Source of the DNA: a virus | Lineage: Duplodnaviria; Caudoviricetes | DNA: 24,220 nt | IMG/VR virus record: IMGVR_UViG_3300017548_000018 | Location: 1 to 24,220 of that record | Direction: 5' to 3' (one strand) | Shown here: positions 2,708 to 23,658 of the stretch, piece by piece | Position numbering within the stretch: position 1 is the stretch's first letter | Layout: each line of letters begins with the position of its first letter | Notes under the pieces: model-generated | What the model saw: only the letters and a program-made list of their open reading frames with translations | Database searches by the model: none | What the model was told of the DNA's origin: nothing | Position numbers and translations under genes: made by a program

Positions 2708-3199
2708 ATGACTGCATATTTGTATCGGATGGGCCACGGGGTGGCGGGTGACATCACTCGTCAGTCACAGGCGACCACGATTGAACCCGCTGTGCTTGGC
2801 GCGACGCCGTTCCCGGCATACGGCCTATTCGGAAAGATGGTTTCCGGGAAATTCGTCCCGATCGGCGCTGGCGACACTGCGGATGATGTCCACGCGCTGC
2901 TTCTGCGACCGTTTCCGACACAGGGCGCGAACGCGAGCGATCCGCTCGCCACTGCTGTTCCGCCTACCTCTGGCATGGCGGACAAGCTTCGGCGTGGTTA
3001 CGCCGCCGTGAAGGTGAATGCTGGCGCTGCTGCGGACGAAGGCGCTGTGTACATCCGTGTCGATGCGGCGGCGGCCGGCAAGCCGATCAGCGGCATCGAA
3101 GCAGCTGCGGACGGCGCAAACACCATTGCGGTGCCCGGTGCCAAGTTCAAAAGCCCTGCCGACGCGAACGGCATCGCCGAGATCGAGTTCAACATCTAA
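2708..3199 (+). CDS. Head decoration / capsid cement protein
   Basis: 163 aa between protease and major capsid gene. N-terminal YLYRM..GVAGDITR and C-terminal ADANGIAEIEFNI are typical. SD GAGGA upstream. Confidence 0.8.
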   Translation: MTAYLYRMGHGVAGDITRQSQATTIEPAVLGATPFPAYGLFGKMVSGKFVPIGAGDTADDVHALLLRPFPTQGANASDPLATAVPPTSGMADKLRRGYAAVKVNAGAAADEGAVYIRVDAAAAGKPISGIEAAADGANTIAVPGAKFKSPADANGIAEIEFNI

Positions 3200-3225
3200 G
3201 CAACGCCGCCAACCCAGAAACCCAC

Positions 3226-3263
3226 AAAGGGCTCACCTCTCGCGAGGTGGGCCCTTTTCTTTT
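3226..3263 (+). terminator. Intrinsic terminator-like hairpin directly upstream of the major capsid RBS
   Basis: AAAGGGCTCACCTC-TCGC-GAGGTGGGCCCTTT (14 bp, one G-U pair) followed by TCTTTT. Confidence 0.7.
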
Positions 3264-3276
3264 GGAGCAAAGAAAC

Positions 3277-4317
3277 ATGATCTTCTCGAAGAGCAAACTG
3301 CAGCGCGCGGCTCAGGTCGCGTTGCTGAGCAAGCGGATCCAGACTCGTGACGGACTGATGACGTTCGACCAGGCAACGGTTGACTCGTCCGGTGCGTTCC
3401 TCGTTGGCGAGCTCGAGCGCCTCGATCAGACGCTGAACATGCCGCTCGCGTCCTACACGTGGAGCCGCGATATCGATCTGCGCAGTGACGTGTCGATGGG
3501 TGACGAGAGCAGCTCGTTCACCAACTCGTCCTTCGGCGCGGTGCCTGGCGTCCCGGGATCCGGCAAGGCCTGGATCAGCAAGAACGGGAACGCGATCACC
3601 GGCGTCAGTGTCGATATCGGTAAGACGCCGTCCCCGCTCACGTTGTGGGCCATGCAGCTCGGCTGGACCATCCCGGAGTTGGAGAGCGCACAGAAGCTCG
3701 GCCGACCGGTCGACACCCAGAAATTCGAAGGCATGCAGCTCAAGTACCAGATGGACGTGGACGAGCAGGTCTACATGGGTGACACCGCGCTCGGCTACAG
3801 GGGCATGCTGAATCACGGATTGATGCCGGTCTCGAATGCGCAGACGGGCAGTTGGGGCACCGCTACTGCCGCTCAGATGATCGATGACGTGAACGAGTTG
3901 CTCAACAGCGCATGGAAAGCGTCCGGCTATGCTGTGTGCCCGGAGATCCTGCTCCTGCCTCCGGAGAAGTTCGCAAAGATCGGTGCGACGATCGTCAGCA
4001 ACGCCGGTAATCAGAGCGTTCTGGAGTATCTGACGAAGAATTGCATCAGCAACCGCGTCAACGGCAAGCCGCTCGATGTGCGTCCGCTGAAGTGGCTGAC
4101 AGGCTCGACTTCAGGCGGTCAAGGTCCGGGCCAGTCTGGCGCCGATCGCATGGTCGCCTACACGAAGAGCAAGCGCTTCATCCGCTTCCCGCTCGTGCCC
4201 ATGCAGCGCACGCCGCTGGAATACCGCGATCTGCGCCAGCTCACGACGTACTTCTGCCGCCTCGGTGTGGTGGAGCTGGTGTATCCGGAGACCATCGCCG
4301 CGCGCGACGGCATCTGA
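3277..4317 (+). CDS. Major capsid protein (DUF2184-like)
   Basis: 346 aa from ATG 3277 with SD GGAG at 3264. Motifs GAFLVGELERLD, TWSRDIDLR, LGRPVDTQK, DRMVAY, GVVELVYPETI..DGI. Position in head module. Confidence 0.93.
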   Translation: MIFSKSKLQRAAQVALLSKRIQTRDGLMTFDQATVDSSGAFLVGELERLDQTLNMPLASYTWSRDIDLRSDVSMGDESSSFTNSSFGAVPGVPGSGKAWISKNGNAITGVSVDIGKTPSPLTLWAMQLGWTIPELESAQKLGRPVDTQKFEGMQLKYQMDVDEQVYMGDTALGYRGMLNHGLMPVSNAQTGSWGTATAAQMIDDVNELLNSAWKASGYAVCPEILLLPPEKFAKIGATIVSNAGNQSVLEYLTKNCISNRVNGKPLDVRPLKWLTGSTSGGQGPGQSGADRMVAYTKSKRFIRFPLVPMQRTPLEYRDLRQLTTYFCRLGVVELVYPETIAARDGI

Positions 4318-21617: not shown

Positions 21618-21678
21618 GGCTGCAAGGTAACCGTCGGGCCATCGCAGAAGTTCACGCATTTCTGGGCGAAACCAGAGG

Positions 21679-21903
21679 CTATCGATCTCCTTTGTCCTCT
21701 GGCCGAGGGTAGGCCGCCCATTCCTGGGCATCTCTGACAGGATCCTCGATCGGTTCCGCCGCGACCGGCGTCGAGTCTTTTCCAAGCCAATGCACGGCGG
21801 CCATGATTACGAAGACGACGGCCGCAAAGGCCATCGAGATGAAGATCAGCAGGCCCGTTTCGGGTGGGATGGGCTTGTGCTCGGTTCGCGGCCGCTCGGT
21901 CAG
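21679..21903 (-). CDS. Possible small single-pass membrane protein; start uncertain
   Basis: Hydrophobic stretch GLLIFISMAFAAVVFVIMAAVHWLG followed by an acidic tail, downstream of the tRNA. Confidence 0.35.
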   Translation of the reverse strand: MTERPRTEHKPIPPETGLLIFISMAFAAVVFVIMAAVHWLGKDSTPVAAEPIEDPVRDAQEWAAYPRPEDKGDR

Positions 21904-21924
21904 AACGCTCTGGGAAGGCCCGGC

Positions 21925-22280
21925 AATAGTACAAGGGCCTTTTAATAGTACAGATGTGGTGCCGGCTGAGGGACTCGAACCCCCGACCCACGGTTTACAA
22001 AACCGTAGCTCTACCAACTGAGCTAAGCCGGCGTTTTTCTTCTGGATACAGGAGCTTACTGTATCCGGCGAGAGGTGTGCGGAAGTCTCCGCTGTGGTCC
22101 AGGCTGCGGCCGGATCTGCGGCCAGCCTTTTAGAGCCCAACTGATTACAAATCAGAGCGTCGGAATCCGAGTTTCTGTACATCGATCAATTCCTTATGCG
22201 TTAGGTTTGTACTATAGAGACGCCGATTTAGGCCGGCGCCGCTGTATTTTTTCTCGATCTTTTCGAGCGGAATAGTACAG
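21925..22280. other. Putative attP: core about 22137-22155, arm-type repeats WATAGTACAR, IHF-like site
   Basis: Non-coding region 3' of the integrase. Core CTGATTTGTAATCAG on the - strand. Repeats at 21925, 21944, 22271 (direct) and 22207 (inverted). GATCAATTCCTTA at 22184-22196 has one mismatch to the IHF consensus WATCAANNNNTTR. Confidence 0.75.
21957..22032 (-). tRNA. tRNA-Thr(UGU), complete, 76 nt with encoded CCA
   Basis: GCCGGCT TA GCTC AGTTGGTA GAGC T ACGGT TTTGTAA ACCGT GGGTC GGGGG TTCGAGT CCCTC AGCCGGC ACCA. All four stems pair and the anticodon is TGT. Confidence 0.97.
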
Positions 22281-22295
22281 CAGGCGCCGGGTATC

Positions 22296-23435
22296 TCAGA
22301 GCTGTTTTACCTTAAGCGGCTTGACCTTCGAGCCGAGACGCCGGTAGTGCTTCCGAGTGACTGCAACGTCTGCATGCCCGAGTCGCTTCTGCGCATCTTC
22401 ATCGGACTCCGAATCGCTGCCGGTCTTGCCTCGGATGTCCTTCTCCTGAAAGCGCTCTGTGATCTTCGTCTCCTTGAGCAGACGAGACATGAAACGCTTC
22501 CATATGCTGTCGAACCCGGGCGCGTTGCCGTCTTCGCCGACGTAGCACTCGCCGAACTTGTCGCAGAACAGCCAGGGCGATATATCGACGGGACGCGCGC
22601 GCTTCGCATCTTCCACGGCCTCGCGAAGCTCATCCGACCACTCGATCGTCTTGCGGTGACTGGTGGTCTTTGCCGTTTTCCGCGGCTTCACGAAGATACC
22701 TTCGTCCGTGAAATCGCTTGGCCGGAGGCGAAGCATGTCGGCACGCCGCAGGCCGGTTATATATTTGATGCGAATGTAGGCCTGGAGCATCTTAACCGAG
22801 CCCCGCTTCTGGAACGACGGCAGGCTCAGGGCTTCCTTGAGTTCCCAATCCTGGATGTATCGATCTCGCGCCTGGGAGTTCTCTGCGCCTTCGAATCGCA
22901 CCTTCTCGATGAACGGATGCTCGTTAAGGCCCGGCGCGCCCCAGCGCAAAGCGTGCGTGAAGGCGTGCGATAGCAGCGCGAACTCCAGCCTGGCGACACG
23001 CTTGCCGCCGCCGCCCTTCACTCGCCACTCAACGTAGGCGAACGCGTGCCGCGCCTTGATCTGGACGATCAGTGCCGGCGGTGGACCGGCGAAAAACTTG
23101 CGGAGATGGACAAGGTACTTGCGATTGTCGATCTGGGTGCGGAGCGCCTTCGTAGGGATCACGTCCCGCTCGTAGCGATCCAGCAACTGAAGGACGGTTT
23201 GAAGTATGGGGTCGTCGGCCGCAATCCCTTGCTGCTCCTGGGCTTTCTTCATCCCAGCCAGGCGCTTGCCGAACTCGGCATGCGCAGCCGACAAAGACTT
23301 CCCGAGCCGGAAGGTCCATTTGTTGTCGAAGAACGGCCGTTCGTCCTTGCGCACCTGGTAATAGTACGCACCGCGGGTGTGGCGCCACCGCGTCGGCAGC
23401 CCTCTGTTTTCTTTCAGCCGTCTTCTAGGTGGCAT
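22296..23435 (-). CDS. int: Tyrosine recombinase (phage integrase)
   Basis: TGLRRADML (Arg I), KTAK (Lys), EKDIRGK (Arg II), LGH, HY (Tyr). N-terminal arm-binding region LP......GAYYY. ATG 23435 overlaps the upstream xis-like gene. Confidence 0.95.
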   Translation of the reverse strand: MPPRRRLKENRGLPTRWRHTRGAYYYQVRKDERPFFDNKWTFRLGKSLSAAHAEFGKRLAGMKKAQEQQGIAADDPILQTVLQLLDRYERDVIPTKALRTQIDNRKYLVHLRKFFAGPPPALIVQIKARHAFAYVEWRVKGGGGKRVARLEFALLSHAFTHALRWGAPGLNEHPFIEKVRFEGAENSQARDRYIQDWELKEALSLPSFQKRGSVKMLQAYIRIKYITGLRRADMLRLRPSDFTDEGIFVKPRKTAKTTSHRKTIEWSDELREAVEDAKRARPVDISPWLFCDKFGECYVGEDGNAPGFDSIWKRFMSRLLKETKITERFQEKDIRGKTGSDSESDEDAQKRLGHADVAVTRKHYRRLGSKVKPLKVKQL

Positions 23436-23658
23436 CGTACAGCGCACCGTAATTCGGCTCCCACTCATCGAGAGCCTTGGTCGACTTAGATTTCACCGCT
23501 CCGAGCAAATGGTCAACGTGTCCGCGATGGACGAACACGCTGCCATCCGGTCGCGGAAGATGATCGATGCCCATGGCGCGCAACGCACGGATCTGTGCGG
23601 CACCCTGTTTCTTGCCGGTGATCTCGATCAGTTCTTCAGGGGTACAAGCGATAGCCAT
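23425..23658 (-). CDS. Excisionase-like protein (DUF4224-like)
   Basis: TPEEL.EITG.K...AQ.RAL..MGI....RPDGS..V...EPNY.AL. Overlaps the integrase start. Confidence 0.85.
   Translation of the reverse strand: MAIACTPEELIEITGKKQGAAQIRALRAMGIDHLPRPDGSVFVHRGHVDHLLGAVKSKSTKALDEWEPNYGALYDAT

Follow-up and report, generated by a model that had tools for sequence, protein, structure and literature searches.

A probable attP that would break the host tRNA-Thr(UGU) gene, with a complete tRNA-Thr gene between its core and its downstream arm sites, in a myovirus-type phage

Canonical attP sites of the anticodon-loop class, which carry the tRNA gene's 3' half, were reportedly described by Williams in 2002. 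Lysogeny that depends on a phage-borne tRNA gene (tRNA-dependent lysogeny) has been defined and proven in actinobacteriophages, namely Fionnbharth (K4), Cluster L phages and Gaia (X) (Guerrero-Bustamante and Hatfull 2024, PMC10865867). In the parts of that paper considered here, the tabulated common cores range from 8 to 17 bp, the origin of tRNA-dependent lysogeny is left open, and its spread and its relation to canonical sites are raised as questions. At least in the portions of the sources cited, the vTRX32-1-like phages of Rhizobium use a 12-bp anticodon stem-loop core and carry a tRNA-Leu devoid of this core, presumably as a protection against 'super-integration' (PMC8631192); tRNA replacement is also reported from Alphaproteobacteria (PMC11476347, which covers Lo5R7ANS-like Sinorhizobium prophages, and PMC12429752); and the pelagiphages HTVC019P and HTVC025P split a host tRNA gene for which a phage tRNA of like kind has been proposed as the replacement (bioRxiv 10.1101/410191). 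The mechanism, down to a replacement tRNA without the core, is already published for actinobacterial and proteobacterial phages, including phages of Rhizobium.

The stretch of DNA compared here with these systems, hereafter the window, is the 24,220 nt of the IMG/VR record IMGVR_UViG_3300017548_000018. On the comparisons set out below, it quite probably contains an attP with a 16-bp core (22155-22140), through which integration would break the tRNA-Thr(UGU) gene, present in a single copy, of a Steroidobacter-like host, and whose own tRNA would keep the lysogen alive. The layout of arm sites, core and tRNA, the canonical sister site, the type of host gene and the homology of the tRNA leader can be read directly from the sequences.

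The record encodes a head protease, a major head protein, a tail sheath, a tape measure, a baseplate and a tail fibre, together with a spanin, a DNA methyltransferase, an excisionase and a tyrosine integrase; the phage is most probably temperate and of the myovirus type. A long Ala-rich ORF (1-1443), open at the contig start and without any PHROG match, lies immediately ahead of the head protease gene. The integrase gene (22296..23435, - strand; longest ORF start at 23468) matches PHROG 1 (integrase, E 1.8e-29) and Pfam PF00589, and thus supplies the phage-encoded tyrosine integrase that characterizes tRNA-dependent lysogeny. Alignment identifies the residues R229, K252, R334, H353 and Y363 (numbering from 23432); the HxxR motif begins with Lys instead of His, a replacement also seen in five of eight close homologues. 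The excisionase gene (23425..23658, - strand) matches PHROG 1266 (excisionase, E 5e-13), and its product is 65% identical to that of a gene on the contig of L085, the sister locus described below.

The sequence-only reading had reported, 140 nt past the integrase stop (22296), a lone tRNA-Thr(UGU) anticodon stem-loop, preceded by no D arm and followed by no T arm, and, 108 nt further on, a complete tRNA-Thr(TGT) with the anticodon stem ACGGT/ACCGT. All of this holds: the stem-loop, CTGATTTGTAATCAG(TTGG), lies on the - strand at 22155-22137, the site as a whole falls in non-coding DNA past the integrase stop, and the complete tRNA is the sole ARAGORN call in the window. The stem-loop pattern has a single exact match in the window, and shuffled sequences gave a mean of 0.36 matches even with three mismatches permitted. 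Furthermore, TGTACTAT occurs in four exact copies in the 24,220 nt, at 22279, 22215 (inverted), 21952 and 21933, all of which bracket the site, two ahead of the stem-loop and two past the tRNA. These copies mark the putative arm-binding sites of the integrase. The first, P1 (TGTACTATT, 22271..22279, - strand), is identical in L085; the second, P2 (22208..22215, + strand, inverted), is separated by 64 nt from P1 and by another 64 nt from the core loop, both spacings being those of L085. Between P2 and the core is an IHF-like site (22184..22196, + strand; one mismatch), also in the register of L085; this site and those of L085 and L311, a second related locus, are called IHF-like by their match to the IHF consensus. 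The predicted common core, CTGATTTGTAATCAGT (16 bp, 22140..22155, - strand), is delimited by identity with L085 and by the 16 bp common to candidate host tRNA genes, that of G759 included, and contains the predicted strand-exchange region, the 7-nt loop at 22151-22145 (- strand). It is followed on the same strand by a proximal spacer without IHF-like site or promoter match (22086..22139), by a tRNA 5' leader with an 8-bp hairpin at 22066-22044 (22033..22085), homologous to the tRNA-Thr(TGT) leader of genome G748 and devoid of the host -10 box, and by the complete tRNA-Thr(TGT) (21957..22032), which includes CCA and has a T at position 26 (T26). The arm-type site P'1 (21944..21952, - strand) lies 4 nt past the CCA end; its distance to the isolated loop is 199 nt and that to the tRNA loop 49 nt, and P'2 (21925..21933, - strand) follows 19 nt after P'1, a spacing also found in L085 and L311. 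Of the elements expected in a lambda-type attP, the region has four putative arm motifs, on both sides of the core, and one P-side IHF-like site, the P' side having none; as a whole it folds no better than shuffled sequences (z -1.4). Two Logan contigs match the window with zero differences, X2 over 21628-22407 and X1 over 21960-22600, which argues against a mis-join, although not independently, as both come from one sample, possibly the source sample.

Among relatives with DNA context, L085 encodes the nearest integrase (76% identity). Its contig, 39,195 bp long and bounded by a 99-bp terminal repeat, is a circular phage genome (L483-L484, G002:C545, 39 kb) and has in common with the window only the integrase, the excisionase and a DUF5675 protein. 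Microbispora was considered as its host and rejected, the corresponding bin having the core once only, on the circular phage contig; judging from its att sequence, L085 points to a proteobacterial host. Its attP shows the same four arm motifs as the window, and its core passes directly into the 3' half of a tRNA-Thr(TGT). The two sites align without any gap from the first arm to the core, the distances P1-P2 (64 nt), P2-loop (64 nt) and between the P' pair (19 nt) are equal, and the last 12 bases of the core are identical (12/12) between flanks that agree at 44 of 109 positions. Because the spacings, the gap-free P arm, the IHF register and the core identity all match, the core position is taken by the isolated loop and not by that of the complete tRNA. 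The proposal that the isolated stem-loop is the crossover core is thus supported by the geometry of a canonical sister, from which the position of the core is deduced.

The second relative, L311, came from a scan for the tRNA 3' half that gave at least 122 genome loci out of about 330. It is an attL, in which a complete CTGA-stem tRNA-Thr(TGT) is followed by the arm pair of the window and by a 42-residue integrase remnant, 67% identical, whose best eight matches belong to the close clade. Genome G010 carries the corresponding empty site, since its 188 upstream bases are identical to those of L311 and the two diverge after the CCA end. An attB of this clade in a host tRNA gene is therefore seen through the attP of L085, the attL of L311 and the empty site of G010. 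The integrase remnant of L311 (252-365) is turned towards the P' arm pair, but in L085 and the window it is the P arm towards which the end of the integrase gene is turned; going by these sequences, the orientation of att relative to int has flipped within the clade.

The window departs from both relatives downstream of the core. Where L085 has the 3' half directly after the loop, it has 150 extra nt (spacer, leader and 5' half), so that host-gene homology stops after 16 bp at the core position instead of continuing into a tRNA 3' half. The core-to-P' distance is 199 nt, compared with 81 nt in L085 and 78 nt in L311, and the P'-side IHF-like site present in L085 and L311 (two mismatches each) is absent. 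The shift from 81 to 199 nt and the loss of this site mean that activity of the attP is not guaranteed; the 199-nt stretch may loop unaided.

A core that reaches a tRNA 3' half is recovered only if the crossover occurs in the loop of the complete tRNA itself (22001-21995). The phage would then integrate into an ACGGT-allele host and leave an intact tRNA at both junctions; the isolated stem-loop would be a leftover, or would act as an additional core in CTGA-type hosts. The 7-nt loop is indeed identical in both stems, the ACGGT stem occurs in 4 of 56 genus matches, and the 3' half is followed by the P' arms in a canonical-like manner, albeit at 49 nt from the loop, i.e. 32 nt (about three helical turns) nearer than in L085. 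However, the register of P1, P2 and the IHF-like site fits the isolated loop exactly and misses the tRNA loop by 150 nt, the isolated core is fully conserved between 40%-identical flanks, both clade sites seen (L085, L311) have CTGA-type half-sites, the 49-nt stretch contains no IHF-like site, and the tRNAs of G168 and G249, both hosts with the ACGGT allele, show six other differences from that of the phage. A crossover in the complete tRNA is accordingly quite improbable.

With the isolated loop as the core, the likely hosts belong, judging from sequence comparison, to a Steroidobacter-like genus, presumably gammaproteobacterial; the GTDB genus of the L311 and G010 genomes also contains records that bear the names Povalibacter and Steroidobacter in their titles. 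Hosts with the CTGAT/ATCAG stem that the sequence-only reading presupposed do exist, mostly with one copy of the gene: the tRNA pattern was found in 53 of 58 genomes of the genus and only once in 50 of these 53, many of the genomes being incomplete. The 56 genus matches, one of them from the unpublished G751, comprise 40 CTGA, 12 CCGCC and 4 ACGGT stems. At the family level, 123 of 151 genomes, many of them likewise incomplete, match the pattern, 116 once and 7 twice (the count includes one match from the unpublished G124). In seven genomes, with one copy each, the gene shares T26 with the phage tRNA and reads TCAGT past the loop, which lengthens the core in common with the phage to 16 bp. The phage capsid protein was not found in the 58 genus genomes with the query used, so that the host assignment is drawn from the att and leader homologies only. 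No integrase of the window family was found near the tRNA genes of the two-copy family genomes (five of the seven examined). Three anticodon-stem alleles of tRNA-Thr(TGT) coexist within the genus of G748, where this gene looks like an integration hotspot, and genome G747 has five matches to the loop and the start of the 3' half.

In the preferred reading, the crossover would take place inside the isolated loop and into the anticodon loop of the host tRNA-Thr(UGU) gene. As the attP keeps only the anticodon stem-loop of this gene, integration likely breaks the only copy of the host; the gene would be left broken at both junctions, and the complete tRNA between the core and the P' arms would sustain the lysogen. 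The earlier claim that neither host half is restored is supported by a simulated join of the window with G759, which gave an attR without any tRNA and an attL with only the phage tRNA. A 16-bp core unable to rebuild the tRNA is what tRNA-dependent lysogeny involves, here according to simulated junctions that depend on the inferred host; the phage tRNA, a tRNA-Thr(TGT), also corresponds to the isotype of the gene that would be lost. Under established wobble rules, ACA is read only by tRNA-Thr(UGU), and a single-copy host would therefore depend on the prophage gene. In the simulated attL, the phage tRNA lies 166 nt after the host -10 box. It would be transcribed from the host promoter, about 166 nt behind this box, a proposal that we regard as likely, with a confidence slightly above even.

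The alternative, a variant within tRNA-dependent lysogeny, is that the spacer contains a promoter of its own for the phage tRNA and that the host promoter is not needed. The tRNA of Fionnbharth does have a strong promoter of its own, according to the part of PMC10865867 that deals with it, and a -10-like hexamer, TACAGT, lies 25 nt ahead of the tRNA in the window. The promoter scan of the window gave no match, but this blank means little, because the same scan also misses the host promoter of G748. Against an own promoter, TACAGT forms one side of the leader hairpin, and its counterpart TATAGC is without the final T in G748, where the homologous leader sits behind a conserved host TACAAT box. 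Overall, we consider an own promoter somewhat unlikely.

The leader itself is traceable. The 53-nt leader of the sole tRNA-Thr(TGT) match of G748 is identical to window positions 22085-22033 at 37 of 53 positions without gaps; 155 other distinct loci give a mean of 12.6 and a maximum of 21, and none of 200,000 shuffles reaches 37. BLAST of leader and tRNA against G748 gives 83% identity (E 2.7e-33). In G748, the leader begins 13 nt past a TACAAT -10 box that is conserved at nine orthologous loci and absent from the phage; at the other eight loci, the tRNA follows the box after 17-20 nt, and the exact leader pattern occurs in only 1 of the 58 genus genomes. The hairpin is retained in G748 through G.U-compatible changes, which fit an RNA leader; a second copy of it was sought in the window and none was convincing, leaving a role as operator unsupported. 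The 53 nt thus appear in G748 (L467:1417-1469) as an insertion between the -10 box and the sole tRNA-Thr(TGT) match, absent from the eight orthologous loci, and the first bases of this insertion resemble those just after the CCA end of that tRNA. Leader and tRNA may have been taken up by the phage from a host like G748, which fits the identity of the G748 tRNA with that of G759, or the G748 leader may be a prophage scar, which fits a homology that stops at the point where G748 and G759 part. For the site itself, the likely ancestor is an L085-type attP that would have gained the leader and a 5' tRNA half and lost the P'-side IHF-like site. In a bolder version, which we find rather doubtful, leader and tRNA would make up a cassette without a promoter, turned on by the act of integration and exchanged between phage and host, the G748 leader being a prophage scar that became fixed downstream of the host promoter and the phage copy having taken the stem of a sister allele, which locked the arrangement. 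If this were true, the stem swap may permit lysogeny whatever the stem allele of the host, and the steps from a canonical attP to tRNA-dependent lysogeny would be visible within one clade.

The phage tRNA had been described as recoded. This stands only in part: the ACGGT stem is a common bacterial allele, but it appears to have been swapped onto a T26 backbone. The closest tRNA by plain distance, in the alphaproteobacterial L396, differs by 1 nt, and six further bacterial loci are 2 nt off; an origin of the stem as a phage invention was therefore rejected in favour of a natural bacterial allele. Pairs 29-41 and 31-39 and one acceptor-stem pair are all that separates the phage tRNA from the T26 host genes (from that of G760, the D arm as well). 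An ACGG stem on a T26 tRNA-Thr(TGT) was found in 0 of 52 viral and 0 of 7 host sequences with patterns that allowed ACGG, and all 59 other T26 sequences seen have a CTG-type stem. The simplest reading of these sequences would be a swap of stem alleles on a host T26 backbone; an ACGGT T26 tRNA may also have come from an unsampled donor. When a crossover of the phage tRNA loop with a CTGA host was simulated, each of the resulting hybrids had two broken stem pairs. Pairs 29-41 and 31-39 would lie in the half-sites predicted to bind the integrase around the core, and their exchange likely shields the phage tRNA from this enzyme. Were the phage tRNA host-stemmed, excision between attR and the tRNA loop would lead back to an L085-type attP.

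Searches for integrated copies gave no lysogen and no attL/attR junction of this phage, and those for further examples gave no second case. A CTGA-type 5' half cut after the core occurs in 0 of 401 family genomes, a full integrase of the close clade in none of 301 family genomes and none of 58 genus genomes, and the arm-pair pattern in 0 of 401 order genomes, a sample that leaves out the carrier G001; two scans of viral contigs for the arm-plus-core and core-plus-tRNA patterns gave 0 matches. The layout is a singleton: 286 integrase-family loci have 157 tRNA calls nearby, and the only one with this layout is that of the window; the other eight loop repeats near such loci lack a matching stem, and the baseline of the integrase family is the canonical att. 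In scans of viral, genome and metagenome collections, L085 was the sole close relative with DNA; seven further integrase homologues (P0002-P0008) show 65-75% identity, and a scan for the clade motif gave five viral and six genome loci, of which only L085 was relevant. Isolated phages include no close integrase (best 42%) and no match to the att region. None of the sequencing runs listed as carrying the sequence is an RNA run. The contigs show no joint and, among those listed, no loose end at the core, nor do they include a host locus like that of G748, but such contigs drop rare forms, so that this blank is no evidence either way.

These results bear on whether the site is functional at all. 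It could be a defective mosaic of an L085-type left arm and an attL-derived tRNA segment of a related element, without integration, the tRNA serving lytic growth, countering anticodon nucleases or being neutral cargo. The singleton layout, the altered P' spacing, the loss of the IHF-like site and the searches, which gave no lysogen, would fit such a mosaic. Against it, the integrase and excisionase genes are intact, and the four arm motifs and both core half-sites are perfect amid diverged surroundings. The anticodon loop is the usual target of anticodon nucleases, and that of the phage tRNA is identical to that of the host. We therefore regard a defective mosaic as improbable.

The junction expected of the integrated phage has a natural parallel in an AT-rich element unrelated to it. 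Locus L549 (2495-2807) consists of promoter-like TTGACA/TATAAG motifs, a tRNA-Thr(TGT) 5' half cut after the loop, about 200 nt and a complete tRNA-Thr(TGT), with an integrase-like ORF downstream (3086-4258). L576 (2777-2463, - strand) has the same arrangement, and the locus is intact, i.e. empty, in L555 and L561 (2494-2569). The L549 element shows a natural case of the predicted attL. The replacement tRNA of L549 and L576 keeps the host-type stem, which indicates that a changed stem is not required in every family.

Among the known systems, the actinobacteriophages resemble the window in their tyrosine integrase, their short anticodon-loop core, a host tRNA that is not rebuilt and a phage tRNA of the same isotype, and they also have canonical sisters, Boilgate and Omega, as far as the relevant parts of PMC10865867 go. 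They differ in that the window concerns tRNA-Thr(UGU) and a presumably gammaproteobacterial host and is known from its sequence alone. The tRNA of Fionnbharth, according to the same parts, lies away from attP with its own promoter, whereas that of the window lies inside attP. On direct sequence comparison, Gaia (KJ567043) comes near the layout of the window, its core being located downstream of int, about 113 nt before a tRNA-Leu on the same strand; however, Gaia has an arm-like pair between core and tRNA, and the window has the tRNA between core and arm sites. In Gaia (L461:10814-11304), 48-nt inverted repeats (81% complementary) enclose the att region together with the tRNA-Leu.

Of the proteobacterial systems, the vTRX32-1-like and Lo5R7ANS-like phages are described, in the parts of the sources cited above, as T7-like with a tRNA-Leu(UAG), the window being of myovirus type with a tRNA-Thr(UGU). 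Lo5R7ANS (NC_025431, L460:8527-8840) has nearly the layout of the window: a complete tRNA-Leu(TAG) with a different stem lies inside arm-like GTGACAAA repeats, 15 nt before an isolated core. Being located 5' of the core, this tRNA would not come under the host tRNA promoter, whereas that of the window is located 3' of the core with a host-type leader. The next two genes of Lo5R7ANS bear the annotation of tRNA splicing ligases. The pelagiphages involve tRNA-Cys and tRNA-Leu and, at least in the part of the preprint concerned, the HTVC019P tRNA is located among lysozyme and primase genes, outside attP. A tRNA placed between core and downstream arms with a host-type promoterless leader was found in none of the literature searched, which covered text outside subscription papers, figures and supplements.

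The window can also be compared with the canonical sites L085 and L311, which have the integrase clade and the arm motif in common with the window, and L085 also the P-arm spacings, the IHF-like site and the core loop; the 3' half carried by L085 would rebuild the host tRNA, whereas the core of the window cannot. The layout and its traceable origin are new details. One integrase clade thus holds a canonical and a tRNA-carrying attP with an unchanged left arm, the added piece being traceable to a host tRNA leader. The value of the system resides in this canonical sister, in the traceable leader and in the two-pair stem swap, and the pair formed by L085 and the window is well suited to testing switch-on by the host promoter, shielding by a two-pair change of the stem and the tolerance of a gene inside an attP arm.
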